Of a DNA stretch of 57,993 nucleotides, positions 1 to 18,643 are shown piece after piece. Within the stretch, counting starts at the first letter, position 1; every line of letters starts with the position of its first letter. The notes beneath the pieces were generated by a model that did not search any database, was not told the DNA's origin, and saw only the letters and a program-made list of their open reading frames with translations. Made by a program: the position numbers and the translations under genes. Location: the NCBI GenBank assembly GCA_964452165.1, contig CAYVKP010000005.1:1-57993 (forward strand), written 5' to 3'. Source of the stretch: an uncultured Gammaproteobacteria bacterium (GTDB lineage Bacteria > Patescibacteriota > Microgenomatia > Levybacterales > GWA1-39-11).

Positions 1-18
1 CCCGCACGGTAAGCGGAT
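1..18 (+). repeat. Block-A intergenic motif, copy 1 (CCCGCACGGTAAGCGGAT), cut by the window edge
   Basis: The same 18-20 nt sequence recurs at 471, 839, 1437 and 2801. Each copy ends 18-24 nt before a start codon. It contains a CCGC-N6-8-GCGG mini-hairpin. Confidence 0.8.
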
Positions 19-41
19 AATCAAGTCCAAGGAGGACTCTG

Positions 42-482
42 GTGAAAAACATCGGCAAATTCATGACCGCCATCATCACGATCACACTGCTCGGCCTCAC
101 CATGGCCTGCGGCAGCAGCGACAAGACGGTCTTCGAATCGGGCAAGCACGAACCCGGCCAAGTCGGCGGGACTCACATATCACTTACCTACCTGGTGGAC
201 GGCGACTACCTGGTGGTCTACACCGATATGGATTTCTTAAGCCGGAGCGCCCTAGAGAAAGGCCTGACCATCAGGTATCTGGATGAGCTCCAAAAACGAG
301 GAATCCCGAACCGGAAGGAGTTCGACAAAGCGGTAGCAGAGCTTGCTGCTGGCGCGTTGACTGTCACGGAGACCACCCCTTTCCGCCACGTCAAGGTGGA
401 GATTCGGTCCGTGGACAAACCAGGTGGAGGTCAGCAGGCCGTTCGCCTGAACACCCAAGCATCTACCACACCCGCACGGTAA
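42..482 (+). CDS. Hypothetical secreted or lipoprotein-like protein (146 aa)
   Basis: GTG start 5 nt after AAGGAGGA (29-36). The N-terminal hydrophobic segment ends in LTMAC, which is lipobox-like. Codon usage is high-GC. The stop TAA (480-482) lies inside motif copy 2. Confidence 0.75.
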   Translation: MKNIGKFMTAIITITLLGLTMACGSSDKTVFESGKHEPGQVGGTHISLTYLVDGDYLVVYTDMDFLSRSALEKGLTIRYLDELQKRGIPNRKEFDKAVAELAAGALTVTETTPFRHVKVEIRSVDKPGGGQQAVRLNTQASTTPAR

Positions 483-488
483 GCGGAT
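471..488 (+). repeat. Block-A intergenic motif, copy 2
   Basis: CCCGCACGGTAAGCGGAT, identical to copy 1. It ends 23 nt before the ATG at 512. Confidence 0.85.
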
Positions 489-511
489 AGTTCAGTCACA
501 GGAGGAGACTG

Positions 512-838
512 ATGCTCTATAAGCTAACCCATCCTGAGCCCATTCTGGACGTAATCTCGCTCGGCTTTCAAGTCGTGCAAGGTCGTCCGTCAGGCGAACT
601 GGGCAAGCTCAAGATGGGCAACTGTTATGGCGCGCTGATCGTGACCTACCCCGCGCCTCACAAGCGCTCCTACGAGCTCTGGGTTGTGCCTGGACCGGAC
701 TCGCACAAGGATCTTCCTCACCTACTGGAGCTGCACGCCCGCGACCACCGCATCAACGGCATCTGGGACATAAGCAGCATCACGTTCGAAGAGGCCAAGA
801 AGAAGCAGGAGGCGCTCGACAGCACCTTCGCACCCTGA
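512..838 (+). CDS. Hypothetical protein (108 aa)
   Basis: ATG preceded by GGAGGAG (501-507). Sits in a same-strand array of tightly spaced high-GC ORFs. No domain recognised. Confidence 0.7.
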   Translation: MLYKLTHPEPILDVISLGFQVVQGRPSGELGKLKMGNCYGALIVTYPAPHKRSYELWVVPGPDSHKDLPHLLELHARDHRINGIWDISSITFEEAKKKQEALDSTFAP

Positions 839-856
839 CCCCGCACGGTAGCGGAT
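839..856 (+). repeat. Block-A intergenic motif, copy 3
   Basis: CCCCGCACGGTAGCGGAT starts directly after the stop at 836-838 and ends 18 nt before the ATG at 875. Confidence 0.85.
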
Positions 857-874
857 TAGTAAAGGAGGCCAGAA

Positions 875-1432
875 ATGGCTAACAACACGGGCAGGAGGAG
901 TTCGCCCATCACGGCTATCGTCGCGCTCCTTGCGCTCATCGTCCTCGGCCTGGCTGTGGGAATCACCTACTACTCGTCTCGCGACGCAAAGCCGAGTGCC
1001 AAGGTGGTCAAAGCCGTCAACTCCTCAGACATCAGCTTCGGGCCGACACCCAGCGCAGGGGAATGTCTGGATCGGTTCGAACGGAGTAAGGTTCAAGTCG
1101 GCGACACAATACGGGTTAAGACTCAGGGGAAGAACCCGGAGTACGTCGATCTCAGGACCGGTTCAACCGTCGTGGATGTCATACCGTTTTTCCTCTTGGG
1201 AATCGGTGATCGACCAAGCGGCGTAAACCTCGACAGAGAGAGCCTACCCGCAGGAGCTCAGGCGCGCGTGATACACGTCCAGTGTCGCGACGCGGAGGCA
1301 CACCTCATTCTGCTCTACCAGATCAAAGATCTGTGTGGGCTCAAAAACCCCACCAGGGTCCTTGAGTACTTCGGCGAAGAACCGATCCAGCAGGAGTTCA
1401 ATCGCTCTTATGGGGTAGACCCCTGCAGCTAA
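875..1432 (+). CDS. Membrane-anchored Cys-containing protein, paralog of 1475..2113 (185 aa)
   Basis: AAAGGAGG SD. N-terminal TM segment (ITAIVALLALIVLGLAVGITYY). Shares blocks with the next ORF, including GDTIRV, E.VD.RTG, V.C...H..L.Y..D.C and F..YGV..C near the C-terminus. Confidence 0.8.
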   Translation: MANNTGRRSSPITAIVALLALIVLGLAVGITYYSSRDAKPSAKVVKAVNSSDISFGPTPSAGECLDRFERSKVQVGDTIRVKTQGKNPEYVDLRTGSTVVDVIPFFLLGIGDRPSGVNLDRESLPAGAQARVIHVQCRDAEAHLILLYQIKDLCGLKNPTRVLEYFGEEPIQQEFNRSYGVDPCS

Positions 1433-1436
1433 ACGA

Positions 1437-1456
1437 CCCCGCATGGTAAAGCGGCT
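1437..1456 (+). repeat. Block-A intergenic motif, copy 4 (variant CCCCGCATGGTAAAGCGGCT)
   Basis: Lies 4 nt after the stop at 1432 and ends 18 nt before the ATG at 1475. Followed by TAGTAAAGGAGG, as in copy 3. Confidence 0.8.
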
Positions 1457-1474
1457 TAGTAAAGGAGGACTGAA

Positions 1475-2113
1475 ATGACTAAGGACAACATCATAAGGGG
1501 TGGCCGGATCGGGCTCCTGGTTGCAATCCTGCTAATCGTGGGTCTCGTGATCCGCGGAGGCAACCGGGAAACCAGGCCTAACACAACCCTGGAGACCACC
1601 CCCTCGGGTACTGTGACCGTCACGCTGACGGGCTCAGTCAACCCCGCAGCTCTCAAGGCCGCGGAGGACACCAGGAGGGTCGGCATCGCGGGCGACAAGG
1701 ATGACACCTCTTGCTGGAGCTCTGACCAGCTCAAGCAGGCTCCACAGCGCGGTGACACTATGCGCGTTACGTCCGTGATGACCTACGATACGCCTGGCGA
1801 GCTGGTCGACACAAGGACTGGCGTCGTCGCCAAGTTCAATGAGACCGGATCGCCTGGCTTCGTGCCTCTGTTGGGTTCGGGCAAGTTCCTGGCTATCCAA
1901 ATTCAGGGACCGTCCATTCCGGTCGGCCTCGAGCTCAAGGTAGCGGAAGTATCCTGTCAGGCTTACGTGAACGAGAGGCACCCTACGGTGACTCTGGTCT
2001 ACGATTTCGTCGACTACTGCCGCGATAAGCCGAGGATCACGAACGTGGTCAACCCATCCCAGACCGCCGGCGGGGCTTTCAGGGAGCGCTTCGGCGTCAA
2101 CCTCTGCGCCTAA
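1475..2113 (+). CDS. Membrane-anchored Cys-containing protein, paralog of 875..1432 (212 aa)
   Basis: AAAGGAGG SD. N-terminal TM segment (IGLLVAILLIVGLVI). Conserved Cys pattern shared with 875..1432. Confidence 0.8.
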   Translation: MTKDNIIRGGRIGLLVAILLIVGLVIRGGNRETRPNTTLETTPSGTVTVTLTGSVNPAALKAAEDTRRVGIAGDKDDTSCWSSDQLKQAPQRGDTMRVTSVMTYDTPGELVDTRTGVVAKFNETGSPGFVPLLGSGKFLAIQIQGPSIPVGLELKVAEVSCQAYVNERHPTVTLVYDFVDYCRDKPRITNVVNPSQTAGGAFRERFGVNLCA

Positions 2114-2234
2114 GCTGGCATGAAGCAAAGGTAAGCTGATACCTTTAAGCATGGAGCTTCAGCAGGTGCGTGCAGCATCTTAAGCCAACGCACTGCACGA
2201 AACGGCAGGCACGCATTCAGTCAGGAGGCCAGAA

Positions 2235-2786
2235 ATGGCAATCGCAACACAGGCTTTGGCAGGACAGAACCACACGATGAAGATCTCCCTCCCCTGGAGG
2301 AAGATTGCCATCGCCATCGTGGGACTGACCATGCTCGGTGCCGGCGCCTTCTTCCTGCACACGATCGGCAGCAAGAACGCTCAGATCACGCTTCTTGAGA
2401 AGAACCAGGCTCACACTGTGGAGGCACCCTACCGGCCGTTCTTCACGTTTATGACCAAGGGCGAGATCTACACGAATCCGATCTACGTCATGCCTGGTGA
2501 TACAACTGAGCCTGTCAGATTCGATTCGACGGACTTCGTGGTCCTTCGGGTTCGTCCGGACCCTACGGTGGAGAACGCTCTCGCCGGCGGATACATGGTC
2601 AACATCGGCCTAACCCAGCACTACCAATGGGATGGAGGACTCGCACCCACCACCGAGGCACAAATCGCCGAGGAGTACCAGCGCGTCTGCCTGACATACG
2701 GCATGTGCAACTGGATCGAGGCCGAAGCCGTTGGAAGAGAGGTCATCAAGACCCCGATCGGCCGGCGCGACGACCTACTGAAGTAG
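2235..2786 (+). CDS. Hypothetical membrane-anchored protein (183 aa)
   Basis: The SD and start context GGAGGCCAGAAATGGC is identical to that of 875. TM segment IAIAIVGLTMLGAGAFFL. Confidence 0.75.
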   Translation: MAIATQALAGQNHTMKISLPWRKIAIAIVGLTMLGAGAFFLHTIGSKNAQITLLEKNQAHTVEAPYRPFFTFMTKGEIYTNPIYVMPGDTTEPVRFDSTDFVVLRVRPDPTVENALAGGYMVNIGLTQHYQWDGGLAPTTEAQIAEEYQRVCLTYGMCNWIEAEAVGREVIKTPIGRRDDLLK

Positions 2787-2800
2787 CGCAAGCTACACGA

Positions 2801-2820
2801 CCCCGCACGGTAGAGCGGAT
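2801..2820 (+). repeat. Block-A intergenic motif, copy 5 (CCCCGCACGGTAGAGCGGAT)
   Basis: Ends 24 nt before the ATG at 2845. Preceded by a GTAGC-GCAA-GCTAC tetraloop hairpin at 2783-2796. Confidence 0.8.
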
Positions 2821-2844
2821 ATTCAGATCGGGAGGAAAACGATC

Positions 2845-3234
2845 ATGATGAAGCAAGCGGAAATCCTGGTTTACGTCGGCGAAAAGGACTTCGCCTCGCT
2901 CTCGGACCGCAAGCGCGACGAACTCCGGGCAGAGTTCGCTCAGATGGCCGCCTTCTTCTGGGACGCACAGTTCACGGATATCGAGGTGGAGCTTCAGCTT
3001 CACCCTATCCTCAGGACAGGAGAGCTGCCAGAACACGGCTTCCGCGCTGAGCTGCGCTATGACCCACTCTTCAACCGGGTCCTCGACGAAGGGGCAACCG
3101 ACCCCAAGTACGCCGGGAAACGGGAACAGCCGAGCCTGAAGACGCAGCTTGAGGAACGCCTCAACCAGCTCTTCCCTCGGGAGGACCGCCCGTACCACAG
3201 GGATAACCGCGTGGTGGTACGCGTCCTCGACTAG
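2845..3234 (+). CDS. Hypothetical acidic protein (129 aa)
   Basis: GGGAGG SD. High-GC ORF and the last gene before the composition drops. Confidence 0.7.
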   Translation: MMKQAEILVYVGEKDFASLSDRKRDELRAEFAQMAAFFWDAQFTDIEVELQLHPILRTGELPEHGFRAELRYDPLFNRVLDEGATDPKYAGKREQPSLKTQLEERLNQLFPREDRPYHRDNRVVVRVLD

Positions 3235-3678
3235 GCCAGCCACAAGCCGGCCAAGGCAAGCTATTGCCGCTCAATTAAGAGCAAATAGTAGGATTGCAGA
3301 ATCCTTCAAGCCCTGAGGCTAACGCCGAATGGGGGAAAATCCTCTGCAAACGCTGATGAGCGTAACTCATTAAGGTTCCATTGTAGGAAACCTTGGCTTC
3401 ATCTGAGGCTAAAAAGCTCTGCTTGTCGGAGAAAATACACGCGGTAGACGCTTCTATCAAACATGAACTGTCTTGGAAGACATAACCGGTCCCGGAGAGG
3501 AAAAAATACTAGCTATTTTGCTATGTACTATTTCTCTCCGGGCCGACACACTTCTCCTACTATGTGGGATCAGTGCAGGCACATTACGAGACTACAATTA
3601 ACGAAAACAACAAATTGACAATTTAATGTGTGAATTAGTTAATTTTGTTAATTGTTGCCAGGGCTAGCCTTGGCTGGC
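3235..3678. other. Non-coding, hairpin-rich element closed by imperfect inverted repeats (candidate structured RNA or non-autonomous element)
   Basis: The left arm 3235-3278 (GCCAGCC..AAGGCAAGC..CAATTAA) is complementary to the right arm 3647-3678 (TTAATTG..GCTAGCCTT GGCTGGC). Internal hairpins include 3290-3305, 3372-3395 (AAGGTTCC/GGAACCTT) and CCCGGAGAG/CTCTCCGGG at about 3501-3545. I see no credible ORF. Confidence 0.5.
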
Positions 3679-4000: not shown

Positions 4001-4690
4001 ATGAAGAAATTATTTGCTATTGCAGCAGCCACATTAATTGCACTAACAACCGCAAGTGCCGCCTACGCAGGTGGAACTTCAAATTGCCAAATAATCTACG
4101 GTGGAGGACAAGTTTGCCAAAAGAATCTTAAATTCACAATCAACAAATTAGTCCAAAAACCTGGAAAAGGTGGAGGAGATTTTGTTGAGAACCTTACTAT
4201 AAATGACCCACGTTTTGCTCCGGGTCAATCTGTTCAATTTAAAATCGTTGTTGAAAACACAGGCGATACTGACATCACAAATCTTAACGTAGTTGATACA
4301 TTCCCACAATTTGTAACCTTCATGTCCGGTGTTGGAAACGCATCTGCCGGAAACACACAAGATACATTTGTTGTTGGAAGCTTGCCAAAAGGAAAGAAAG
4401 CAGAATTTGTAATTACTGCTAAAATTGCTGACGCAGCAAATCTTCCTTCAGACCAAACTATAACTTGTGTCACTAACAATGTTGTTGCAACAGCACAAGA
4501 CGGATCACAGGGATCTGATAATGCACAACTTTGTATTGAAAAGCCAATAGTTAATGTCCAACCTACACCTCAAATTCTTGAGAAACCATTTGTTAAAAAC
4601 ATTCCTTCAACAGGACCTGAAACCGACGTCCTCTTTGGACTAGTCTCAACAGGCGCACTCGGATACTTTCTCAAGAGAAAAGTAAGCTAA
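4001..4690 (+). CDS. Surface protein with a DUF11-type repeat domain and an LPXTG-like (IPSTG) C-terminal sorting signal
   Basis: Signal peptide MKKLFAIAAATLIALTTASAAYA. The segment GQSVQFKIVVENTGDTDITNLNVVDTFP resembles the conserved repeat domain. The C-terminus has IPSTGPE, then a hydrophobic stretch, then KRKVS. Confidence 0.75.
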   Translation: MKKLFAIAAATLIALTTASAAYAGGTSNCQIIYGGGQVCQKNLKFTINKLVQKPGKGGGDFVENLTINDPRFAPGQSVQFKIVVENTGDTDITNLNVVDTFPQFVTFMSGVGNASAGNTQDTFVVGSLPKGKKAEFVITAKIADAANLPSDQTITCVTNNVVATAQDGSQGSDNAQLCIEKPIVNVQPTPQILEKPFVKNIPSTGPETDVLFGLVSTGALGYFLKRKVS

Positions 4691-5286: not shown

Positions 5287-5490
5287 ATGTCTCACGACAT
5301 CAAGCTCGCGTTTGCGATCTGGCTCATCTTGGTAGCGTTAATTGCTCTGGGAATCTATCTCGTTACTGGGATAATCCCTCTGCTTACAACAACTATCTTG
5401 ATAGTCGGTTCCGCCATCGCTTGGTTTGTGGCCTCGATTCTATCGGCCGGCATCATTAACGCCGCCCGGAGGATCTTCTGGCATAAGTAG
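5287..5490 (+). CDS. Small multi-TM membrane protein (67 aa)
   Basis: Purine-rich AAGGAAGGAAG lies upstream. Two or three hydrophobic helices. High-GC codon usage. Confidence 0.65.
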   Translation: MSHDIKLAFAIWLILVALIALGIYLVTGIIPLLTTTILIVGSAIAWFVASILSAGIINAARRIFWHK

Positions 5491-5535
5491 CCTTCTCAGG
5501 AGTGAGAAACCTGGGATTGTAAAGAGGAGGTCTCA

Positions 5536-5790
5536 ATGGCAAACCGCACTGTCAAATCGACCAAGGCTCAGCGAGACGCAAAGGTGGCCGAACTCAAGGA
5601 AAGTGGCACTATCACCCTCATGGATGATGGCGACTACGACTTGATGAAAGCCGTCATAAGCGCCGCAAAGCCCGGTAACTGGATCTTCTTCCAGACAGCA
5701 CGTTGTGTCAAACCGACAAAGCGTGAGGTCAGCAAGAAGGGGATCAAGGTCGGCTTGGCCGGAGTTTGCACTCCATTCGTAGCGGCTTAG
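5536..5790 (+). CDS. Hypothetical protein (84 aa)
   Basis: AGAGGAGG SD 6 nt upstream of the ATG. Confidence 0.65.
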   Translation: MANRTVKSTKAQRDAKVAELKESGTITLMDDGDYDLMKAVISAAKPGNWIFFQTARCVKPTKREVSKKGIKVGLAGVCTPFVAA

Positions 5791-5880
5791 TCCAACACCC
5801 TGAAAGGAGGTGAGCTGAACTACAAAAAAGTGGTAGGATCAGGCAAGGATTGCCTTAGTTAGGTTTCGTAAGGAGGAACC

Positions 5881-5991
5881 ATGATCGCTATCAAGCCCCG
5901 TCACCTTTTGGCCTCGCAAGTCATGAAGCGCCCCGAAAAGCGCTGGCAGGACGAGCGGCCCAACAGGAAGCGCGGCACCAAGAAGCGCTGA
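5881..5991 (+). CDS. Tiny, highly basic protein (36 aa; below the ORF-track cutoff)
   Basis: TAAGGAGG SD. Hand translation: MIAIKPRHLLASQVMKRPEKRWQDERPNRKRGTKKR. Its stop overlaps the next start (ATGA-type overlap). Confidence 0.5.
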   Translation: MIAIKPRHLLASQVMKRPEKRWQDERPNRKRGTKKR

Positions 5992-6098
5992 TGCGGTTCA
6001 TTCGCAACAACGCCATCTATGCGTACGCGGTAGTCATGATCCTGATTTTTCTCGCGATCATCGTGGGAGGAGTCGGCAAGGCCTGCGGCGCATTCTGA
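5991..6098 (+). CDS. Tiny single-TM protein (35 aa)
   Basis: Start overlaps the previous stop. Hand translation: MRFIRNNAIYAYAVVMILIFLAIIVGGVGKACGAF. Confidence 0.45.
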   Translation: MRFIRNNAIYAYAVVMILIFLAIIVGGVGKACGAF

Positions 6099-6111
6099 AA
6101 CAGGAGGACAG

Positions 6112-6264
6112 ATGGCTAAAGAGCCAAAAATCCGTTCGCCTGACAGCGGCTGGGAGTTCGTCATCAAAAAAGGGCGAATGGCTCCCAAGAAGAAGCGGCC
6201 ACATCCGCAGAAACATCGGAAATGGAAGCAAATCCCGGCCCGCAAGGACAGGACCATAAAGTAG
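6112..6264 (+). CDS. Tiny, highly basic protein (50 aa)
   Basis: CAGGAGGACAG then ATG. Hand translation: MAKEPKIRSPDSGWEFVIKKGRMAPKKKRPHPQKHRKWKQIPARKDRTIK. Confidence 0.5.
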   Translation: MAKEPKIRSPDSGWEFVIKKGRMAPKKKRPHPQKHRKWKQIPARKDRTIK

Positions 6265-6405
6265 CTACCAAGGAGGCAGAATGAAATTGATGGTCTAGCG
6301 GAAGTAGTGCTAGTCTGATGAAAATCGGATAGGAATGAAGCACCCACTGCTTTCGCGATATAAAACTCAAGCTTCACGTTTACGGTTAGTCTTCGGAGGA
6401 AGACA

Positions 6406-8928: not shown

Positions 8929-9015
8929 TCTCCTCAAGAGGCAAAACAGTGTCTGCGTAAAGCACTGTGATTATGGCAACATAGTCGAATACTTTACGGG
9001 CAGGAGGCTTAATAT

Positions 9016-9384
9016 TTGAGCGTAAGCTTGAATATGAGTTTAGTCGAACTCCCTCCTCAACTCCTTCGGAATTATCGGCCAGTCCTAGGAGGATTGAAAG
9101 CGGTGAACCCCGCCATGGTACGACTGAATCAACAGTTCAGGCTTAAAATTGCAAAGTTCTGGGAGAAATTCCGGCGCGACGCGAAAGAGCTTGGGCTTTG
9201 GGTCAAGGAAGAGCTAACCTACCGGTTGCACATCACGCTGTATTATCTTCGTGAATGGAAAAGCGACTGGGATGAGGACCTGGAAGGATACGAATGGTTC
9301 GTAAGATCCATCATGATCATCCTGGGAATTGTCCTAGTGCTAGTCCTTGGCAACTTGATCACAACAGGCCAGCTACCTTTCTGA
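9016..9384 (+). CDS. Hypothetical C-terminally TM-anchored protein (122 aa)
   Basis: TTG start 8 nt after AGGAGG (9002-9007). C-terminal TM segment IMIILGIVLVLVLGNLI. Intermediate GC. Confidence 0.6.
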   Translation: MSVSLNMSLVELPPQLLRNYRPVLGGLKAVNPAMVRLNQQFRLKIAKFWEKFRRDAKELGLWVKEELTYRLHITLYYLREWKSDWDEDLEGYEWFVRSIMIILGIVLVLVLGNLITTGQLPF

Positions 9385-9617: not shown

Positions 9618-10934
9618 ATGAAAAACACAATCAAACAAATGAATAAGGAAGATACAGTGCTTGTTGTTACAAGCTATCCAAATCCTGCCAACGGCCGCCT
9701 TGGTAAGCGGGAATTTAATGCCGTGGGTTGGCACAGTGAACACATCTTGCCATATCTTGCAAAACGTAGAAAAGTCTTGATTGCCGCAGAAGACATTGGT
9801 ACAAAAAAGAGCTTTTCTGTAGGCCAAAATATGCTCGTAAAACGTATTTGGCAGAAGGGAAATCCTCTCTCTTTAATAGAACTTACTAAGTTCATTTTGA
9901 AGCAGGATAAGATCAAATCCGTCATGGTTCAGTTTGAGTTTAACGTTCTGGGTGGAACTCTTCTTAATCTTATGCTTCTTGCGATGCTTGCGATTTTGAG
10001 AGTCCGCGGGAAGAAAATTACATTTGAACTTCACCAGGTTTTGACCGACATTGGTGAGCTTTCAAGACATATTAATGTCACAAATCCTGTACTACAGGCA
10101 ATCTATAACGCGGGCCTTAGAGTGTTTTATACTGCTGTTGGAATAGTCTCAAATGAGGTTATCGTATTTGAAGAGGAGCTTAAAACCAGGCTTAAAAGTT
10201 TTGTTCAATCAAAAAAAATTAACGTTCTCTGCCTTCCGGTTGAACGAGGAAAAACGCTTGCCAAGAGGGCTGCAAGGAAGAAATTGGGGCTTGCTCAAGA
10301 TGAATTCATAATGCTCCAGTTTGGATTTATCAACGGATACAAGGGAATAGATTGGATCTTGGCGGCCTTGAACGGAGCGAAAAACAAAGGACAAAGATTG
10401 CTTATTGCCGGAGGTCAAAACCCATACCTTAAAGATAGACCTTTTTATCAAAAGTACTACAACTCAATTTTGCGTGAAGCAAAAAAACATGCTCACGTAA
10501 CTTACAGTGATTTTGTTCCTGAAGACAAGGTTTATCTCTACTTTGCCGCAAGCGACTTGGTAGTCCTGCCCTACACTGCTTGTATGTCGGCGTCAGGTCC
10601 GTTCTCAAGATCTTTAGTCTTTAGAAAACCTGTAATTATTTCTGAAAAACTTGCCGATTATGCAAAGTCCGACGACTTTGCCGCAGCACTTGAAAACACT
10701 AAACTTAAGAAAGAGGATATTGTTTTTGATCTCAAACGTGAGGATTTCTTGAAAATGTTGGCGAAAGCCCGTAAAAACAAAGCTTATTACAAAAAGCTGG
10801 TTAAGTTTTCAAATGCGCTTGCGCAAGCAAGAAACATTGAGAATATTACCAAGAATCTTGATAACATATTGTTTAGGGCCATTCCAAACAAGGCTTTAAG
10901 ATTCTTACCAAGATTTTCTTTTAAATTTTCGTAA
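9618..10934 (+). CDS. Glycosyltransferase, GT1/GT4-like
   Basis: Low-GC ORF. The C-terminal half has the typical group-1 GT layout (LLIAGG...YFAASDLVVLPY). Confidence 0.6.
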   Translation: MKNTIKQMNKEDTVLVVTSYPNPANGRLGKREFNAVGWHSEHILPYLAKRRKVLIAAEDIGTKKSFSVGQNMLVKRIWQKGNPLSLIELTKFILKQDKIKSVMVQFEFNVLGGTLLNLMLLAMLAILRVRGKKITFELHQVLTDIGELSRHINVTNPVLQAIYNAGLRVFYTAVGIVSNEVIVFEEELKTRLKSFVQSKKINVLCLPVERGKTLAKRAARKKLGLAQDEFIMLQFGFINGYKGIDWILAALNGAKNKGQRLLIAGGQNPYLKDRPFYQKYYNSILREAKKHAHVTYSDFVPEDKVYLYFAASDLVVLPYTACMSASGPFSRSLVFRKPVIISEKLADYAKSDDFAAALENTKLKKEDIVFDLKREDFLKMLAKARKNKAYYKKLVKFSNALAQARNIENITKNLDNILFRAIPNKALRFLPRFSFKFS

Positions 10935-10942: not shown

Positions 10943-13900
10943 ATGGGTGTTTTAAAGAAATTATTTTCGCTTCTTAAGTTCAATTGGCCAATTGCTGGCA
11001 TTTGCTTAATCTGGCTAATTCTTGCCATCGCAAATTTTACTCCCGGAACATATTTATCAGGTTGGGATAGTTTACAAACCGAACTGTCGCCGGTGCTTGC
11101 TATCAAACGCGCATTCTTCTCTGCTTGGCAAGAATACCAAAGCTTTGGGCTTGCTGCAGGCATGGGACATGCCGCGGATTTGCCCCGAGCTATAATTTTG
11201 TGGGTCGCGTCTTTTGCAATACCTGCGCCGATCATTCGCTACTTTTTCAATATTTCCATGGTTCTTTTGGCAGGTGTTGGAATGTACAAGCTTATAGAAC
11301 AAAGCTTTTCTTCTAAACAACCCCACAAGTCAGCAGCATTTATTGGAGCGCTCATGTATATTTTTAACTTCTTTGTTGCCGAGTTAATGGCGCTCCCCTT
11401 TGAATCTTTCTCTGTATTTTTTGCCGCTCTTCCCTGGGAACTATGGGCATTTTTAAGAATATTAACGAATAAGAATATCAAGAAATCGGACTACTTACTT
11501 TTTGCAGTTATATTTTTACTTGCAACTCCGCAGGCAATTGCTCTTCAACTTTTTGCGGTTTTGGGTGTACTTCTGGGGCTAATGGCCCTTGGAAGAATTA
11601 TAAACACAAGATCTATTCTTGTCGCTAAACGTGCAGCAATAGGGTTTGCAATTGTTCTTGCAATTAATGCTTTTTGGATTTTACCTCAAGGGTATTTCTT
11701 AAAAACAGGCGCCGCGGTTGTAACTGAAGCCAAAGCAAATCAGCTCTCGACTCAGGACATCTTCTATAGAAACAAGGACAAAGGAAATCCAATAGACTTT
11801 TTTACAAGCACAGGATTCTTTGCTGATGGAGTAAACTCCAGTCAACAACTTATTTTTGCCGACTGGCAAAACCACAGAGCAACAATTCCCGTCGCAATAA
11901 TTTTATATCTTTTAGCAGGACTTACTATTTTTGGAATACTGGTTCCATCAAAATACAGACTGTCATTTTTGTTCTCCTATATCGTCATTTTGATTGCTCT
12001 TGCCAACAACACTTTCCCTTTTGATTTGATTAACTTAGTTATACGAAAAAGCTCTTTCGTCAATCAGGTATTCCGTTCTCCCTTTACTAAATTTGGCATT
12101 CCAGCAGCTCTGGTTAGCGCATATTTTGGTGCAAATGGGGCTGCCTTTATTTTTGAGAGAATCAGGAAAGTTGGCAAAAAAATCAACCCAGCAACCATTA
12201 TTTTTGAAATTTTAATTATTGGCGCAATTTTATATTCCGCTCTACCCGCTTTCTCCGGACACTTTTTTGCCAACAACATGAAAGTAAAAATTCCGGAATC
12301 ATATTTCTCTTTAATGAATTACTTTAAGACTGTTGACAAGAATCAAAGAATAGGGCTTTTGCCGGAATACACACACTGGGGTTGGTACGATTTGGATTGG
12401 GGTTATGACGGATCAGGATTCTTGTGGTACGGAATTGAGCAGCCGGTGATATCGAGAACTTTTGACGTTTGGAGCGCAGTTTCTGAAAATTATTATTGGG
12501 AAGTAAAACATGCAATTGAAGCAGAAAATCTTACTGAACTTGAGAATGTCTTGCAAAAATATGACGTTTCATATCTTGTTCTTGACCGCTCGGCCCAACC
12601 CCTTATTGCATCTGCCAAAGCCCTTTCTTATGACAAAATCCAAGACATGCTTTCTCAAAGCAACAACATAAAGCTTGAGAAAAACTGGGGAGAAATCTAC
12701 GTTTATAAGGTTGCTCAAAATAAAAAAGTGAACAGCTTTATGTGGGGAGTTTCAAATATCCCAAACAGTGGGCCCAGAATTCAAACAACCAATTTTGATA
12801 CTGCTTATCAAAGCCAAAAAGATTATGTAACGAACGAAAACATTCCACTTGATACTTACTATCCGTACTTGGATGTAACCTCGCAAACCGATATTACAAA
12901 AAATTGGAAATTGACCGAATCGGATTCCGGGTGGACTTTTAGCCGCCCTCTCCCTGACAATATTGGGCAAACCAAGCGTGATACCTTAAACGGTACGGTA
13001 GAGCTACCTTTTTACCAAAATGGTGAAGTGGTTAATTATCTTGTACCCTACACTATTAGTTTTCTCGAGGGAGAAATTAGAGTTGAGTTTCCAAAAATTA
13101 TAATCGATTCTTTCGTAAAAAATAAAAATCCCAATAATTGCGTCGATCAACCGGGAACCAATTATACAATCCGAGATGGAAAAATTGAGATAACCGGAAG
13201 AGATGGAGCTTACAGCTGTTTCTATTTTGACGATCAAAGCTTGTCTCAAAAATATGGCTATATTGTCAAAATTCAAAACAAAAATCTTGAGGGACAAAGA
13301 CTTTTCTTCTACATAAAAGACGCGACAAAAGAACAATCCTATGTTGAGAGTAGACTCTCAGAAGATACTCAATATTTCATTTTGGGACAAAGATTTGACT
13401 ACGGACTTGGATATTCTTTTGCTTTCCAAACTACTTCTTATAAAACTATTCAGTCCAAAAATGAGTTATCCGCTGCTGAAATTTATATTATGCCCTACGA
13501 TGTTTTGAAGAATATATTTATCAAAAAACCAGGTTTTGACGGAGTCAAAACTAAATACTACGAAGTTGACGCAAACAAACTCAACTACTATCTTTATACT
13601 GCAAGTCTTGAAAACCAAAGACCCGATTACTTGGTTTTGGACCAAGCATACCAGCCGGGTTGGTTTGCTTATAATGTGTCTGATTTTAATTTTTGGAATA
13701 GAAATTTTCCATTCCTTTTTGGTAAAAGAATTCAGAGCCATGTTGTAATCGACAACTGGGCAAACGGTTGGAAAATCAGCAATGAAAATTCTAATGTTGT
13801 TCTACTCTACTGGCCGCAATATCTTGAATACATGGGGATCTCAATTCTTGTTGGAACTTTTGTTATACTGATTTTATGGACGGCAAAACTCCCGACATTC

Positions 13901-13957
13901 CTACACTTCAAGTTAAAAAAGAAAACGAGCCACTCGCATCACCCCACCGCCAAATAA
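10943..13957 (+). CDS. Large polytopic membrane protein, GT-C-like (AftD/DUF3367- or YfhO-like), 1004 aa
   Basis: More than 12 hydrophobic helices in the N-terminal 450 aa, then a large soluble domain and a terminal TM segment. The N-terminal GWDS...W..YQSFG pattern resembles arabinofuranosyltransferase-like proteins. Confidence 0.6.
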   Translation: MGVLKKLFSLLKFNWPIAGICLIWLILAIANFTPGTYLSGWDSLQTELSPVLAIKRAFFSAWQEYQSFGLAAGMGHAADLPRAIILWVASFAIPAPIIRYFFNISMVLLAGVGMYKLIEQSFSSKQPHKSAAFIGALMYIFNFFVAELMALPFESFSVFFAALPWELWAFLRILTNKNIKKSDYLLFAVIFLLATPQAIALQLFAVLGVLLGLMALGRIINTRSILVAKRAAIGFAIVLAINAFWILPQGYFLKTGAAVVTEAKANQLSTQDIFYRNKDKGNPIDFFTSTGFFADGVNSSQQLIFADWQNHRATIPVAIILYLLAGLTIFGILVPSKYRLSFLFSYIVILIALANNTFPFDLINLVIRKSSFVNQVFRSPFTKFGIPAALVSAYFGANGAAFIFERIRKVGKKINPATIIFEILIIGAILYSALPAFSGHFFANNMKVKIPESYFSLMNYFKTVDKNQRIGLLPEYTHWGWYDLDWGYDGSGFLWYGIEQPVISRTFDVWSAVSENYYWEVKHAIEAENLTELENVLQKYDVSYLVLDRSAQPLIASAKALSYDKIQDMLSQSNNIKLEKNWGEIYVYKVAQNKKVNSFMWGVSNIPNSGPRIQTTNFDTAYQSQKDYVTNENIPLDTYYPYLDVTSQTDITKNWKLTESDSGWTFSRPLPDNIGQTKRDTLNGTVELPFYQNGEVVNYLVPYTISFLEGEIRVEFPKIIIDSFVKNKNPNNCVDQPGTNYTIRDGKIEITGRDGAYSCFYFDDQSLSQKYGYIVKIQNKNLEGQRLFFYIKDATKEQSYVESRLSEDTQYFILGQRFDYGLGYSFAFQTTSYKTIQSKNELSAAEIYIMPYDVLKNIFIKKPGFDGVKTKYYEVDANKLNYYLYTASLENQRPDYLVLDQAYQPGWFAYNVSDFNFWNRNFPFLFGKRIQSHVVIDNWANGWKISNENSNVVLLYWPQYLEYMGISILVGTFVILILWTAKLPTFLHFKLKKKTSHSHHPTAK

Positions 13958-15216
13958 GTAGGAGACTTTTTTTGCGAGGCGCGGGAGCAGGAGCCGGCGC
14001 TGCCTTATTAACAAAAACTTTTGGTGGTGAACAGCAAATTGCCGAAGCCGCTGACCCATTCCACGAAGACGGCTTGCCTCCAAGATTTTCCGATATACAT
14101 GATCCCGACGAGCCCGAAAAAGCCGAGAACTGGAATACCAACAGACTCGAACGGGAAATAAGACAAGCAATAGATAAATCGGTAGATACGGGTGAACATG
14201 TATCCGTAGAGCTTCCCCCGGGACAAATTCTGATTGATAGAAACATTGTCTGCGAGATTAAAAAAGGAGCCGATATCTCTCTTCTTGGAAACAACAATTC
14301 ATACTTAAAACTTACTCCCGAGATGTCGGATATCCCAAAAGATAGAGACTCGGAGGGCGCAAATAGCATGCTCCGATTTGTTGATGTTGAAGGATCAATA
14401 ATAATTGATGGAATAACTTTTGACGGAGGGTCAACCAGGGCTGGAAAGGGCGGTTATAAGGCCCCTGACGGGCCATGGGATTCGATAGTTATGATAACCG
14501 GAAGCGGTCCTGGCGCAGATAAAAAACCTGAGAAAAGAGATGAATCGCGTAAGGGTGAGGCAACGGTTACAAACTGCAAATTCGTAAATACTGAATCCGC
14601 CGGCTGCTTTATGAGAAACCTTTCAAAGGCAGAGATGCAGAATAGTGAAGGTAAGAATTTTGACGCGCTTTGGTGTGTTGCATGGAGTGATACCTATCGC
14701 GGCAGAAATCTTAAAGCCCAGAATTCTCTTTCTGATGGTTTGTCGTTTTTTGTTTGCGACGCCGGTACTCTTGATAATTGCCAGGTAAAAACAGCAAGAC
14801 AAGGATTTCTTACTCAGGGTTCAAAAAATTTTGATTGGAAAAATTGTTATGCGGAGGATTGCGGCAAAGGTTATGACTTCTATGATGATGGCGACTTCCA
14901 CAAACTTGACGAGAATGCGACGCTTGATAACTCCCATTCGCGAGGAAATGCACTCGCCTACTCTATGAGATTTACAAAAAATGTGAATATTAAAAATTCT
15001 TTCCACGATGAAATTGGGGCTTGGTATAACAAAGATGATTTTTTACATAAAGAAATAGCACGACCTGAAGAAATCACAAGAGTTACTGACCCTATGTGGT
15101 TTAGCGATACTGACAACGATGTTAAGTTTTCAAACGTTCAAATAAGAAAAGCGAAGAATATACAAAGAAAATATACTTCTAGGGTTCCGCGGGGAATTCA
15201 AACTTTTGGTTTCTAG
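13876..15216 (+). CDS. Secreted right-handed beta-helix (pectate-lyase-fold) protein with a Tat-type signal
   Basis: SRRLFLRGAGAGAGAALL is a twin-arginine motif. IIIDGITFDGG and NCKFVNTESAG are beta-helix-like repeats. The only canonical start that keeps the RR motif is the ATG at 13876, which overlaps the upstream gene by 82 nt. Confidence 0.65.
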   Translation: MDGKTPDIPTLQVKKENEPLASPHRQISRRLFLRGAGAGAGAALLTKTFGGEQQIAEAADPFHEDGLPPRFSDIHDPDEPEKAENWNTNRLEREIRQAIDKSVDTGEHVSVELPPGQILIDRNIVCEIKKGADISLLGNNNSYLKLTPEMSDIPKDRDSEGANSMLRFVDVEGSIIIDGITFDGGSTRAGKGGYKAPDGPWDSIVMITGSGPGADKKPEKRDESRKGEATVTNCKFVNTESAGCFMRNLSKAEMQNSEGKNFDALWCVAWSDTYRGRNLKAQNSLSDGLSFFVCDAGTLDNCQVKTARQGFLTQGSKNFDWKNCYAEDCGKGYDFYDDGDFHKLDENATLDNSHSRGNALAYSMRFTKNVNIKNSFHDEIGAWYNKDDFLHKEIARPEEITRVTDPMWFSDTDNDVKFSNVQIRKAKNIQRKYTSRVPRGIQTFGF

Positions 15217-15384: not shown

Positions 15385-15528
15385 GCCACTTTCGTAGCAC
15401 AGTGTGTCTCATAGGAGAACTGCTTTGGCGGGACACTTTGTGTCTCTTCTTTTTCCCTAGGCGTTAAGCCATCATCGGTGTAAGTGCAGATTCTCCCTTA
15501 GAGTTTAAGCCGTCGCCGACTCAGTAGG

Positions 15529-16308
15529 TCAGCAGCGAACCGTTCCTGGCGAATAGCTAACGCCTCCGTGTTGGAACGCCCAGTCCCACGACTGCCAAGC
15601 CTGGTGTGGGTATCGCCGGTTGTTGACCGCGACACATACGTTGGCAAGCATGAAGCGCTCGGAGCTGTAATACCAGCCTACGTACTGCTTGCCACTGTTG
15701 TCGTTGGGGTGGTCAACTACGCAAAGCGAGTCAAACCAGTGGCCTTCGACGTACATCCAAGACACGTACCAAGTGCCGTAGGCGTCTTGAGCCCACTGAT
15801 CCGTTTCGAGGACACCCCAGACACCGTAGACGCAGTTCACGTAAGGTGACTTGTCGGGTACGGGAGCCCACCAGTCCGCAGTTGGAGCAGGAGCGCCGCC
15901 ACACTGAGTGATCAGATGGAAGCCGCTGGCCGGTACGTTGCGGTAGTGCGAGTCCCCCCGGTTCGCAGCAGCTTGCCGATCAGCAAGTTGTTTCGCCGCG
16001 GCATCACACGCAGCCTGAAGGTTGGGGTAATACCTCCACGCTATCCGCTGAGTTGGGCAACCGTGGTCGCAAGGTGTCCATGGGCCGGTTACGCCGCCGA
16101 AAACCGTGACGTCGATCGCTTGCCCCTGGCTGTTGAGGAGATCCTCCTCGGCAACAGCTATGATGCCGTTGATCGTAACACCGTCCGGAACGGCGTCGCC
16201 GTCGGCCGAGGCCGGAGTGACGCTGTAACCCAGGGTTGCGAACCCGGTGACGAGTACGAGAAGCAGCGCGAAGAGCCACTTCCCCCCGATAGGAATTTTG
16301 AGCACCAT
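15529..16308 (-). CDS. Secreted Cys/Trp-rich protein (259 aa)
   Basis: AAGGAGG SD 8 nt upstream. Signal or TM segment WLFALLLVLVTGFATLGYSVTPASA. Shares the C..GCP..AWRY.N module with 16416..18269. Confidence 0.8.
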   Translation of the reverse strand: MVLKIPIGGKWLFALLLVLVTGFATLGYSVTPASADGDAVPDGVTINGIIAVAEEDLLNSQGQAIDVTVFGGVTGPWTPCDHGCPTQRIAWRYYPNLQAACDAAAKQLADRQAAANRGDSHYRNVPASGFHLITQCGGAPAPTADWWAPVPDKSPYVNCVYGVWGVLETDQWAQDAYGTWYVSWMYVEGHWFDSLCVVDHPNDNSGKQYVGWYYSSERFMLANVCVAVNNRRYPHQAWQSWDWAFQHGGVSYSPGTVRC

Positions 16309-16415
16309 GTGCTCTACCTCCTTCTTCTTTGTTCAGCGCTCAACGCAAGCGCTTTGAACCCAAGTTGTAAACGTAACGCGGCCCCTTCAGAGGGAACGCG
16401 GAGGGTGCTGCGTTC

Positions 16416-18269
16416 TTATTGTCCGGTGCAGTAACCGGTCTGGGGAAGCTCGTGTTCGTTGAGCGTAACCTTGAGGCCCTTGCCTGTAATGGCCATGGCC
16501 TGGCTACAGCTGTTAGCGAACTGGCTGCCCCACGACGTACCGCATGGAGACGTCCACGCGTCCATAGTCACCAGGTCATCCGCCGGATTAGGCGAAACGC
16601 CAACCCAGAGGGCCTGGTTGAGATGCTCGAGAACGAAGAACTGGACGGTCCCGTCCGACACGTTGGTCAGACGAAGGATCGCCGCGACTCCGGCATCGAG
16701 CGTAGTGCCACGCGTGACACGTGCCATACCCTGGTTGCAGTCGGTTGACTGGGATTCCAAGGTCCCGGCCGGCGCGACTTGACCGTAAACGATCCTGGGC
16801 GCATTGCCCGTAGGACCGGCAGGCTTTGACACGAAGGCGCCGAGTGGCGACTTCATGACCGCTTCTCTGTTTGCCGTTTGATCGACAGCCGGAGGCTGCG
16901 TGCTTACGGCAGGAGGAAGCGGACTTGCGGCCAGAGCCTGTGACGACTCGAAAGAAGCCGCGTACGTCTGCGAGACGTTCTGCGCATTAACTTGCTGTGC
17001 ACCGGGTTGAGTCGGTGTCTGAACGGGAACGCCGCCGCCACACATGCCGGGCTGTGCCGGTGTATAGGTGACAGCACTAAACGTGGCTGGATCCTCGGCC
17101 TTGCGGCGAGGTCCCAGTTCGCAGGCTTCGCGCCGTGCGGTTTCCGCTGAGTCGTGACCGATCCAGCAGTTGTTGTTGGGTCCGGCCGTGAAGGCAACGC
17201 CACTAACACCACCGTAGACGACGGCAGTGTGCTTGTCCCAGTTGATGGCCTCAAAGACACCAATGGTGTTACTTTGGACGGTCTCGCCGTTGGTGCAGGC
17301 TCGGGTCACCGATTGTGAAGGCGGAGCCGTGTTAGGCGGTACCGGAGCCTGAGGCCGAGTAGCCGGGGGCGGTGCCTGCTGTGGTTGCGAAACCACAGGT
17401 TGTTGAACCGGAGCAGGTGCAGACCTGGGCGGAGCCGGGGGGCTCTGGACAGGCTGTTGAACCGGTTGCTGAACCACCACGGGTTGCTGAACCTGAGGCT
17501 GGGCAGGGACCTGCTGTGGTGGCGGAGCCGGAGCCTGAGGCCGAGGCGGAGCCGCGGATTGCGGATTCTGCCTCATTTGTTCGGCAAGCCTGCTGCCTTG
17601 CGTGTAATGCTCGACGGTGTCATTGAGCTTTGTGGCTCTCATGTACACTGCCGGGTTGACGGAGGTCACCTGCGGGGTGCCGATCACCTGGTACCTGGCG
17701 TCGCAGATGCCGCCGGGGACGGTTTCAGCTGTACTCTGATCGTTGAGGAACATGTTCTCGTTGTAGTTGCCCGGGGTGCCTTGTACTCTCCAGCGCTGTA
17801 GTGTCACGCAACCGCCGGAGAACATCTCGCCCGGGTTGTCGTAGCGCCAGGCCAAAACCCCGAAAGGCGGACATCCTCCGAAATCGGGATGACACACCTT
17901 GACCTCCTCGGCGTTGAGGCCGACGAAGATTTTGGTGGTGCTGTACCTTCCTGGTGCCCAGTTGGTTACGGCTATCACGGCAAGGTCGCCAGGGTTGACG
18001 TCATGGCCTTCCGTGATTTCTTCGAACTTGCCATCCGGTATTCCAGAGTCCTTGAGAGCATCGTTAACGGACGTCCTCAGCTGCGTGAACTGTTCGCGCA
18101 GAAGAGCGTCGTTGGTGCTCGATGCGGCTGATGGTTCGGCGGTTTGGCCGAGTGGCGACTGCTGCTGTTGGGTAGCTTTCGCTTCCTTTGATGATACGCT
18201 CAGCGCTCCGACGACAATGATCGCCAAAAGCATGAGACCACCGAAGGACGCGAGCAGTTTCAATGGCAT
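16416..18269 (-). CDS. Secreted 617-aa protein with a Pro/Gln-rich low-complexity core and a C-terminal domain shared with the 840-aa protein
   Basis: AAGGAGGAGG SD. Signal or TM segment LLASFGGLMLLAIIVVGALSV. C-terminal blocks KPAGPTGNAP, AAILRL, GTVQ, MDAWTSPC and LKVTL match 6406..8928. Confidence 0.85.
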   Translation of the reverse strand: MPLKLLASFGGLMLLAIIVVGALSVSSKEAKATQQQQSPLGQTAEPSAASSTNDALLREQFTQLRTSVNDALKDSGIPDGKFEEITEGHDVNPGDLAVIAVTNWAPGRYSTTKIFVGLNAEEVKVCHPDFGGCPPFGVLAWRYDNPGEMFSGGCVTLQRWRVQGTPGNYNENMFLNDQSTAETVPGGICDARYQVIGTPQVTSVNPAVYMRATKLNDTVEHYTQGSRLAEQMRQNPQSAAPPRPQAPAPPPQQVPAQPQVQQPVVVQQPVQQPVQSPPAPPRSAPAPVQQPVVSQPQQAPPPATRPQAPVPPNTAPPSQSVTRACTNGETVQSNTIGVFEAINWDKHTAVVYGGVSGVAFTAGPNNNCWIGHDSAETARREACELGPRRKAEDPATFSAVTYTPAQPGMCGGGVPVQTPTQPGAQQVNAQNVSQTYAASFESSQALAASPLPPAVSTQPPAVDQTANREAVMKSPLGAFVSKPAGPTGNAPRIVYGQVAPAGTLESQSTDCNQGMARVTRGTTLDAGVAAILRLTNVSDGTVQFFVLEHLNQALWVGVSPNPADDLVTMDAWTSPCGTSWGSQFANSCSQAMAITGKGLKVTLNEHELPQTGYCTGQ

Positions 18270-18629
18270 TTCGTGCCTCCTCCTTGGGTTAGTCTAAAAA
18301 CACTACCTTCATTTACGCATGCAAGCGGTATCGACATACCTATCTACGCTCTCTGGCGAAGACAACTATTCTTGCATTTTATCGTGCGCTGCTGAAGGTG
18401 ACTCCATCTGTTTTAACGTCTTTTCGAGTATTTCTACTTATAGACCACTTTGGTCAGACGTTGTTCCAGGACGGATAACACCCGCTGTACATGAACTTGC
18501 CTTGCGGCTCGTCCACAATTTCTATGAGTCCTCTGCCCTTGGGCTCATAAATACGCACAGCAGGTAGTACCCGTCCTGGATATTGGGATAAAAATGATTC
18601 CTGTAAGAAATCCCGATCAAATCGGGATC

Positions 18630-18643
18630 CCTACTACCTTGTC
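18630..18643 (-). repeat. Right terminal inverted repeat of block C (CCTACTACCTTGTC)
   Basis: Reverse complement of 15260-15273. Preceded by the ATCCCGAT-CAA-ATCGGGAT hairpin at 18610-18628. Confidence 0.75.

Follow-up and report, generated by a model that had tools for sequence, protein, structure and literature searches.

Three GC-rich gene blocks in a Patescibacteria contig as probable copies of a clade-endemic, hypervariable surface-protein locus

An atypical content of guanine and cytosine (GC) is routinely taken to mean that genes were acquired horizontally not long ago, and, where the organism is an episymbiont, to hint at its host. Among the closest described systems, the flexible islands that encode surface structures (O-antigen and capsule loci, and the marine "metagenomic islands") are usually more AT-rich, and the vls system of Borrelia comprises an expression site and an array of highly similar silent cassettes, which vary by gene conversion within one genome. 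As regards translation, the anti-Shine-Dalgarno sequence of the Bacteroidota is sequestered and their rpsU is Shine-Dalgarno-led. The literature offers three further points of reference: Borrelia vls as a case of surface-lipoprotein antigenic-variation loci with raised GC (PMC11499132); the GeneMarkS-2 classes, set beside the Shine-Dalgarno-poor and leaderless-rich bacteria (PMC6028130); and a hypervariable gene of Gracilibacterium with Pro-Thr-Asp repeats, for a probable surface protein, whose extreme variation in the population fragments assemblies (PMC6851277). Here we describe three GC-rich blocks of genes in contig CAYVKP010000005.1, analysed over 57,993 nucleotides (nt; this whole stretch is the window), whose AT-rich backbone can reasonably be taken for a chromosome of the Candidate Phyla Radiation (CPR)/Patescibacteria. 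The reading that we favour, with moderate confidence, is that the blocks derive, by copying and expansion, from a hypervariable locus for surface proteins that is endemic to one clade, a lineage of Patescibacteria that probably falls in the Microgenomates group.

The borders of the blocks come from a two-state segmentation of the window, which bears out the three GC-rich blocks in an AT-rich backbone of the original prediction (58–60% against 39% GC):

1..3272, + strand: block 1, 58.6% GC, the 3′ portion of an array of GC-rich DNA that spans 6.4 kb or more
5287..8942, + strand: block 2, 59% GC, a clade-wide syntenic island (its segment in the segmentation is 5404–8942, 59.2% GC)
15509..18288, - strand: block 3, 60.4% GC

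The DNA between the blocks has 39.6–40.4% GC, and positions 18289–57993 are uniform at 39.4%; with the coordinates first proposed, blocks of 58.5, 57.5 and 57.8% GC stand against 39.3–39.9% outside, and of the two hand counts then given, that of 23/60 at 10021–10080 is exact, whereas 61–120 contains 38/60 and not 39. The GC of third codon positions (GC3) is 0.66–0.78 in the block genes and 0.25–0.39 in those of the backbone, the four-fold degenerate sites have 65% GC in the blocks versus 34% in the backbone, and the spacers have 52–58% within the blocks and 35–46% in the backbone; the four-fold sites and the spacers together imply a contrast at the level of the nucleotides, and not of amino acid usage. 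The foreign look of the blocks by composition, already pointed out, is thus not confined to GC, as it is found also in the translation-initiation signal, described below, and in the dinucleotide signature, where the distance between blocks and backbone is 124–180, against 33–88 among the backbone segments themselves.

The evidence that carries the favoured reading comes principally from the relatives. Sibling loci were fetched from GTDB, JGI, NCBI and ENA data, with the gene of a GT1 glycosyltransferase and that of a membrane protein of 1004 amino acids (aa) as anchors, and those with enough sequence upstream of GT1 were taken as informative (15 distinct organisms). The anchors belong to the low-GC genes that lie between the blocks, of which the DUF11 protein, the GT1 glycosyltransferase and the beta-helix protein had been recognized from the outset and are confirmed here:

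4001..4690, + strand: DUF11 surface protein (PF01345; CLIPPER in the contig gene tables), backbone, GC3 0.25
9618..10934, + strand: GT1 glycosyltransferase, backbone, conserved right flank of the island
10943..13957, + strand: polytopic membrane protein, 1004 aa, backbone, syntenic in relatives
13972..15216, + strand: beta-helix protein with a Tat-like signal, backbone, its place taken by a GT2 gene in the relatives

The position of block 2 holds a GC-rich island in all 15 of the 15 informative relatives, with no counter-example among them, and the DUF11 gene is its conserved left flank in every one. The gene order is kept, namely Rho, a type IV secretion system (T4SS) pilin, DUF11, in some cases a VirD4-like gene, the island, GT1, the membrane protein of ~1000 aa, GT2, PIN/TRAM, RadA and S1; the succession is DUF11, island and GT1 in the window, L009, L001 and L002, and the VirD4-like gene stands between DUF11 and the island in L010–L012. 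The GC of the island reaches 54–70% in L001, L002 and L009–L012, and in L013/23, L014, L017, L019, L021, L025, L026 and L027 there is a segment of 53–63% GC at 0.3–2.7 kb upstream of GT1. This conservation is deep: where GT1 was the anchor, its identity to the GT1 of the window lies between ~61% and 37%, and the most distant loci, L001 and L002, anchored on the 1004-aa membrane protein, retain 28–31% identity in that protein. The four-fold sites of the sibling islands have 65% GC, the same as the window blocks, and once base composition is normalized the signature distance from the blocks to the sibling islands is 38–140, nearer than to their own backbone. The sibling island genes also encode lipoproteins or anchored proteins with Pro/Thr/Ala linkers.

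The proteins of the islands are related across loci through a few domains, which in blocks 2 and 3 are distributed as follows:

5287-5490, + strand: block 2 gene, 67 aa, two transmembrane (TM) segments
5536-5790, + strand: block 2 gene, 84 aa
5791-6405: block 2 spacer, 615 nt, 52% GC, with no + strand open reading frame (ORF) of at least 60 aa and no Rfam match
6406-8928, + strand: block 2 gene, 840 aa, SAP domain at the N-terminus, repeats, TM segment at ~458, Pro/Thr linker, Cys-containing C-terminal domain
9103..9384, + strand: borderline ORF at the right edge of block 2, 93 aa, 49% GC, Shine-Dalgarno-led, C-terminal TM segment
16416-18269, - strand: block 3 gene, 617 aa, signal/anchor, N-domain (residues 326-411), Pro/Gln linker, C-terminal domain
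15529-16308, - strand: block 3 gene, 259 aa, signal peptide, 8 Cys

The C-terminal domain, of ~150 aa, is common to the large proteins of blocks 2 (840 aa) and 3 (617 aa), at 35% identity, and this, together with the paralogues and the repeated spacers of block 1, indicates that the blocks are interrelated and have grown partly by duplication. Its profile detects, besides blocks 2 and 3, the protein P0003 (L009) and L021; that of the N-domain, whose distribution is the one within the fetched loci, detects island proteins of L009, L011, L012 (where it is present in two copies), L013/23, L014 and L017, and other domains are common to L010-L014 and to L019-L025-L026-L027. Neither Pfam nor PHROGs gave a match for any block protein, except for the SAP domain of the 840-aa protein. 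That nearly all of these proteins carry a signal peptide or a TM anchor, as had been stated, holds for the 9/12 with a hydrophobic anchor or signal and not for the other 3/12, which have no hydrophobic segment; there is one lipobox, and most have paired cysteines.

The blocks also differ from the backbone in how translation would begin. Taking the strength of a Shine-Dalgarno site as its predicted pairing energy with the anti-Shine-Dalgarno, a strong site lies 6–9 nt before the start in 16/16 block genes, with energies of -8.3 to -13.0, whereas 3/37 backbone genes reach -6 (Fisher 6.5e-11 versus the block genes), a value that 14% of random 20-mers of block DNA attain. Conversely, a TANNNT box is present at -18 to -4 in 24/37 backbone genes and in 0/16 block genes; the backbone genes with this box and without Shine-Dalgarno lie within 20000–56000, with examples starting at 24144, 47975 (- strand), 54834 and 55566. 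Such a box so near the start suggests leaderless mRNAs, and the sequence data suggest that the backbone transcriptome of this CPR genome is largely leaderless. The same dichotomy is found in the siblings, where 15/18 island genes, with sensible start codons, have a strong Shine-Dalgarno site versus 3/42 backbone genes. As a separate observation, L010 contains at 100–1620 another island, of 60–62% GC, with LemA and TPM-phosphatase family proteins, both Shine-Dalgarno-led, and GC-rich genes of this kind are therefore not confined to orphan families.

The AT-rich flanks contain sequences that resemble promoters for the block operons, and one of these, on its match to the consensus alone, is a candidate for driving the operon of block 3:

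18920..18948, - strand: sigma-70 consensus, a perfect TTGACA-17-TATAAT that includes a TG, surrounded by AT-rich sequence, ~650 nt upstream of where the genes of block 3 begin

Between this and block 3 there is a possible leader of 650 nt (18270–18948), with an inverted repeat of 24-nt arms at 18465–18580 and no Rfam match. The region 18568–20098 (1.5 kb, 35% GC) has as its sole conserved element a small ORF at 19213–19383, which has homologues in the same position in L010 and L012.

The relatives also reveal how the island changes. In L010 and L012 the VirD4-like proteins are 85% identical and the GT1 proteins 71%, yet the island proteins are unrelated, and that of L010 resembles that of L014 (40%), so that the content of the island is out of step with the phylogeny of its flanks. 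The most telling case is that of L026 and L027, which from 900 nt into GT1 onward differ at ~10 positions in 10.3 kb, whereas in the first 900 nt of GT1 there are 57–93 mismatches per 300 nt (19–31% divergent), and upstream of it there is no DNA similarity save for a terminator hairpin of 63 nt; the island lipoproteins of the two are 40% identical. In the replaced segment, made up of the island lipoprotein gene and those 900 nt (L026 1–2030 versus L027 1–1600), L027 is nearer to L025 (GT1 protein 89%, island protein 68%) than to L026, its near-clone. This difference, seen in these relatives and not in the strain of the window, is a recent import by homologous recombination of the island and part of its flank, with a breakpoint inside GT1; the GT1 sequence that came with it is AT-rich and nearer to that of a different member of the clade, which makes a CPR relative, and not a high-GC organism, the most likely donor. 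As a side observation, of the 16 metagenome contigs that bear GT1 (L013–L028), 8 stop within 1.2 kb on its upstream side, either at the island or inside it, which fits with a fragmentation of assemblies at a strain-variable locus.

The products of the island are lipoproteins or membrane-anchored proteins, put together from linkers rich in Pro, Thr and Ala and a few shuffled orphan domains containing Cys and Trp. If the favoured reading is accepted, they would be surface proteins whose alleles would circulate within the clade by homologous recombination, and which could be under diversifying selection from contact with the host, with phages or with competitors. In the genome of the window the family would have multiplied, with block 3 arising as a paralogue of block 2 and block 1 as a row of small anchored paralogues in tandem; the expansion comprises three blocks, with 12 ORFs in the window and five on the upstream contig L006, ~13 kb. 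Promoters in the AT-rich flanks would drive the operons, and their translation would go through Shine-Dalgarno sites, in contrast to that of the backbone, and the GC-rich composition would be a long-maintained "dialect" of this gene pool and not the time stamp of a recent transfer from a high-GC organism. In other words, the GC-rich, Shine-Dalgarno-led character is stable over distances at which synonymous sites have long been saturated, and therefore "un-ameliorated, hence recent" is not to be read from it.

Block 1 is cut by the start of the window, and the Logan contig L006, which alone carried the first window gene when an upstream extension was sought, adds 3093 nt upstream, of 52–64% GC, with five more ORFs. 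The genes and the spacer motif of the window part are:

42..482, + strand: block 1 gene, 146 aa, lipoprotein-like signal (LTMAC), Shine-Dalgarno site ahead
512..838, + strand: block 1 gene, 108 aa, without a hydrophobic segment, Shine-Dalgarno site ahead
875..1432, + strand: block 1 gene, 185 aa, with 4 Cys and a membrane anchor at the N-terminus; 1475-2113 and L006:2483-3088 are its paralogues
1475..2113, + strand: block 1 gene, 212 aa, with 4 Cys and a membrane anchor at the N-terminus; 875-1432 is its paralogue
2235..2786, + strand: block 1 gene, 183 aa, with a membrane anchor; L006:465-992 is its paralogue, at 30% identity
2845..3234, + strand: block 1 gene, 129 aa, without a hydrophobic segment
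1435..1487, + strand: example of the block 1 spacer, GACCCCGCAYGGTAR(N)GCGG, with a small CCGC/GCGG hairpin, then AAGGAGG and a start codon

The spacer motif has further copies at 1–44, 471–514, 837–887 and 2799–2844. There are at least two sets of paralogues in the block (875–1432, 1475–2113 and L006:2483–3088; 2235–2786 and L006:465–992), and as several of its ORFs are paralogues, tandem duplication accounts for the common spacers.

A number of points weigh against the favoured reading. (i) Blocks 1 and 3 are without a positional counterpart in L010–L012, and a second island in a block 3-like position is found in L013 only; that siblings could lack the blocks at the same sites, a check proposed from the beginning, is thus true of these two blocks in those three relatives and not of block 2, and blocks 1 and 3 appear to be expansions specific to this genome. 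(ii) The location of the block products at the surface would follow from their signal, lipobox and TM features, and the AlphaFold model of the C-terminal domain, from an alignment of two sequences, is poor, with a predicted local distance difference test score (pLDDT) of 45. (iii) The N-domain profile gave no match in the index of 5.8 billion proteins, where it missed even its own seed proteins. (iv) The pairing energies refer to an anti-Shine-Dalgarno for which the 3′ end of the 16S of the organism itself lies outside the window. (v) One gene of the upstream extension of block 1 could point to a separate, phage-related or high-GC source for this block, a thin lead. (vi) And finally, ordinary AT-biased mutation should have ameliorated the composition of a resident gene pool. 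Beside these points, searches of PDB sequences gave artefactual or insignificant matches only. The T4SS pilin, VirD4-like, Rho and GT2 genes, all four present in the closest relatives, have left no remnants detectable by tblastn in 1–20000 of the window, which implies that the locus has been remodelled around the blocks.

The alternative that survives best, though we hold it to be unlikely, is the one of the original prediction: a recent acquisition from a high-GC donor, the host or a phage of the host, whose composition would not yet have been ameliorated. The GC, the GC3, the dinucleotide signature and the use of Shine-Dalgarno are indeed those typical of an organism of ~60% GC and alien to the backbone, the absence of blocks 1 and 3 from the same sites in L010–L012 is what such an acquisition would leave, and the extension gene of block 1 has distant homologues in viral contigs. 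This gene (L006:1942–2433, outside the window) encodes an anchored protein of 163 aa which has a small domain in common with hypothetical proteins of seven viral contigs, at 28–40% identity over 56–87 aa, with the motif [WY]TVPW[AG]M ... GGT[VLA].M. Six of these contigs, from IMG/VR, have 59–70% GC; but the best characterized homologue, gp181 of the Rhodococcus phage Weasels2, lies in DNA of 41–44% GC, and in none of the seven viral loci (within L030–L036) did a second block protein match. The plasmid search with the block 1 proteins gave 0 matches, as did the IMG/VR scans with the paralogue family of block 1 and with L006:1024–1818.

What stands against a recent import is, firstly and principally, the occupation of the block 2 site by an island with homologous proteins in all the informative relatives, down to 37% identity in GT1, and with this the step from an un-ameliorated composition to a recent transfer, perhaps from the host, is not borne out. 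Secondly, the search for donor lineages leads back to the islands of the CPR: in an exhaustive HMMER search of 1.84 billion representatives, from a library that draws on a collection indexing the assemblies of the source runs, the C-terminal domain was found in three proteins, all in such islands, namely the two of the window and P0003, which sits in a GC-rich island beside DUF11 in a contig of a wastewater or river metagenome. Its project, PRJEB12083 (L009), is cited in papers on wastewater and hospital-effluent resistomes. Blocks 2 and 3 had 0 matches for their families in the JGI metagenome scan, IMG/VR and GenBank phages; for the C-terminal domain the JGI metagenome and IMG/VR scans were both empty, and for the N-domain and the 259-aa protein the IMG/VR scans returned nothing. 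The whole 617-aa protein found only itself in the 5.8-billion-protein index, where its Pro/Gln low-complexity stretch probably swamped the word index. Thirdly, in the one replacement observed, the segment carried an AT-rich GT1 whose protein is 89% identical to the one in a different member of the clade. Fourthly, there is no integrase, tRNA or flanking repeat: scans against Pfam and PHROGs, which took in every block ORF and, elsewhere in the window, the ORFs from 120 aa upward, revealed no integrase, transposase, relaxase or reverse transcriptase, ARAGORN found 0 tRNA genes, and in 1–21000 there are no long near-repeats and no pair of repeats that brackets any block. The earlier statement that no integrase or transposase is visible can therefore be extended to the whole window. 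In these searches no high-GC cellular donor is visible.

Returning to the clade-endemic locus, there is the question of what could keep its GC high, for which the candidates are selection on transcripts or expression, a biased process specific to the locus, or an unsampled GC-rich reservoir; the last is disfavoured for blocks 2 and 3, because the C-terminal domain is absent elsewhere in the 1.84 billion proteins, and possible for block 1. The Shine-Dalgarno sites may be needed because GC-rich 5′ regions would be unable to use the leaderless or unstructured mode. It is conceivable, although we would consider it doubtful, that the dialect is actively maintained across the Microgenomates-group lineage as a separate expression channel for surface proteins that interact with the host, for which a distinct state of the ribosome or a stabilization of GC-rich mRNA would be candidate mechanisms. 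In its extreme form, to which very little credence can be given, the island genes would be tuned for expression in a GC-rich, Shine-Dalgarno-using host after a T4SS-like transfer; in the siblings the island has genes for a T4SS pilin and a VirD4-like protein in its flanks.

A biased process has its most concrete form in GC-biased gene conversion, which at a long-lived recombination hotspot would have raised the GC of an ordinary locus. It concerns the cause of the composition only and is compatible with the favoured reading, and the island has been shown above to be a recombination hotspot where the elevation reaches the synonymous sites and the short spacers within the blocks. However, GC falls from ~60% to ~29% within ~100 nt at the stop codon and terminator, and the tract of L026/L027 runs 900 nt into the AT-rich GT1, although a bias linked to the tract should enrich the flanks too. 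The reported effects of this process in bacteria are of a few percentage points, and not of 25–30, and as an explanation we find it rather improbable.

That the GC-richness is a by-product of low-complexity linkers rich in Ala, Gly, Pro and Thr is scarcely credible, since, although Ala, Gly, Pro, Thr and Val are enriched in the block proteins and GC1 and GC2 are somewhat raised, the counts at four-fold sites refute it, GC3 is above GC1 and GC2, the spacers are GC-rich too, and the small block 1 proteins without such linkers have an equal GC3. The richness in Ala, Gly and Pro that had been predicted holds, with Thr and Val to be added, and that in Arg does not (4.8% in block proteins versus 4.5%). 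Structured RNA as the cause of the GC peaks was also considered, and ruled out by the absence of Rfam matches (gathering score or E <= 0.1) in the window and in ten sibling loci; the sibling island segments contain no Rfam RNA.

A chimeric assembly, in which a CPR genome would have been joined with fragments of a high-GC organism, and which had been put forward as the other possibility, is excluded for practical purposes: the steps in composition are abrupt and the contig of the window ends inside block 1, but the Logan single-run assemblies of SRR9179560 and SRR9179563, aligned to the window, reproduce all five in-window junctions across the two runs at 100% identity, the junctions are intergenic with promoter-like sequences in their flanks, and the architecture is repeated in 15 other organisms of the JGI, ENA, NCBI and GTDB data. 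The single-run contigs cover 1753–4729, 4700–13487 and 11228–19493, likewise at 100% identity; the junction at ~3272 is crossed by L007 (SRR9179563) and L008 (SRR9179560), and 4700–13487 is covered by L004 (SRR9179563), 4705–11136 by L005 (SRR9179560) and 11228–19493 by L003 (SRR9179560).

The rest of the window consists of cell-envelope and housekeeping genes (RadA, S1, peptidyl-tRNA hydrolase, glycosyltransferases and Wzy-like ligases), together with an ABC transporter, a Crp regulator and a cluster with YcaO, and at its end there are a gene for 5S and, of a 23S gene, the 3′ end. Candidatus Levybacteria and Patescibacteria group bacterium are among the source names attached to homologues of GT1, and the Levybacteria are part of the Microgenomates group of the Patescibacteria. 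Among these genes, a YcaO cyclodehydratase adjoins a gene of the nitroreductase family (dehydrogenase-like), with an ABC transporter nearby (48237–50263, 52121–53935), in what looks like a cluster for a ribosomally synthesized and post-translationally modified peptide of azoline type, unusual for a small CPR genome. An ORF of 736 aa (35839–38049) combines sulfatase and PAPS-reductase domains and overlaps by ~200 nt with a WecG/TagA ORF (37847–38614), and it may have a mis-set start or be two genes fused. Within the envelope polysaccharide cluster, 38616–39611 matches PF03214 (reversibly glycosylated polypeptide family) with an E of 2e-51; this family is mostly known from plants and archaea.

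If the favoured reading is true, inferences of transfer or of a host donor from composition, as well as the cleaning of bins, would mishandle these CPR loci; the island families would be prime candidates for determinants of host recognition or phage receptors in an uncultured lineage; and the locus would be a natural system for the study of resistance to amelioration, and of Shine-Dalgarno-led and leaderless translation in one small genome. No prior description of conserved GC-rich, Shine-Dalgarno-led islands in the CPR was found in the literature covered, which leaves out most subscription journals.

With regard to known systems, several mobile or variable elements were tried as candidates and rejected. 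A prophage or phage remnant would require genes that are not there, as there is no capsid, terminase, portal or integrase, and PHROGs is without a meaningful match for the block proteins. As the target of a diversity-generating retroelement the blocks lack a reverse transcriptase in the window and a long near-repeat in 1–21000. In the sibling L012, Avd-like genes (23S_rRNA_IVP / bAvd in Pfam) at 5943–6635 and 16516–16884 flank the syntenic region, a hint of such a retroelement nearby, and there is nothing like them in the window. Block 1 resembles an integron cassette array in its small ORFs of one direction, separated by short spacers with a conserved inverted-repeat motif, but no IntI is found in the window or in L006, the spacers, of 29–121 nt, have only a 4-bp CCGC/GCGG stem and no attC-like R/L boxes, and, several of the ORFs being paralogous, this candidate too was set aside.

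With the classical genomic or pathogenicity islands the blocks share the atypical GC, codon usage and dinucleotide signature, and a content of orphan and surface-related genes; they differ in that integrases and transposases are absent, that neither a tRNA nor direct repeats form their borders, that a donor could not be identified, and that block 2 is universal, and not sporadic, among the relatives. With Borrelia vls they have in common variable surface lipoproteins, a locus richer in GC than its AT-rich genome and a variation driven by recombination, although here there is no array of silent cassettes and the variation comes from exchange between genomes. An intragenomic antigenic variation like that of vls, pilS or tprK was in fact rejected, as the paralogues are 22–35% identical at the protein level and there are no DNA repeats of more than 44 nt. 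In the Gracilibacterium gene (PMC6851277) there is likewise a CPR genome with one highly variable locus for a Pro/Thr-rich probable surface protein, but that variation is one of repeat number and sequence inside a single gene, with no compositional island or Shine-Dalgarno dichotomy reported. The Shine-Dalgarno-poor bacteria offer the likeness of a bulk of genes without Shine-Dalgarno and a minority class with strong sites, which implies two initiation regimes; the difference is that here the led class, known from its sequence, is a compositionally distinct, hypervariable surface island. And finally, the flexible surface islands share with this locus the fixed position between conserved flanks (here DUF11 and GT1), a content that homologous recombination swaps among closely related strains, the breakpoints lying in the flanks, surface products (here predicted from sequence features), an atypical composition and the breaking of assemblies; yet the cargo here would be lipoproteins and anchored modular proteins instead of genes for glycan synthesis, the composition deviates upward, by ~20 points, the initiation signal is unlike that of the backbone, and the anomaly is conserved across a deep clade.

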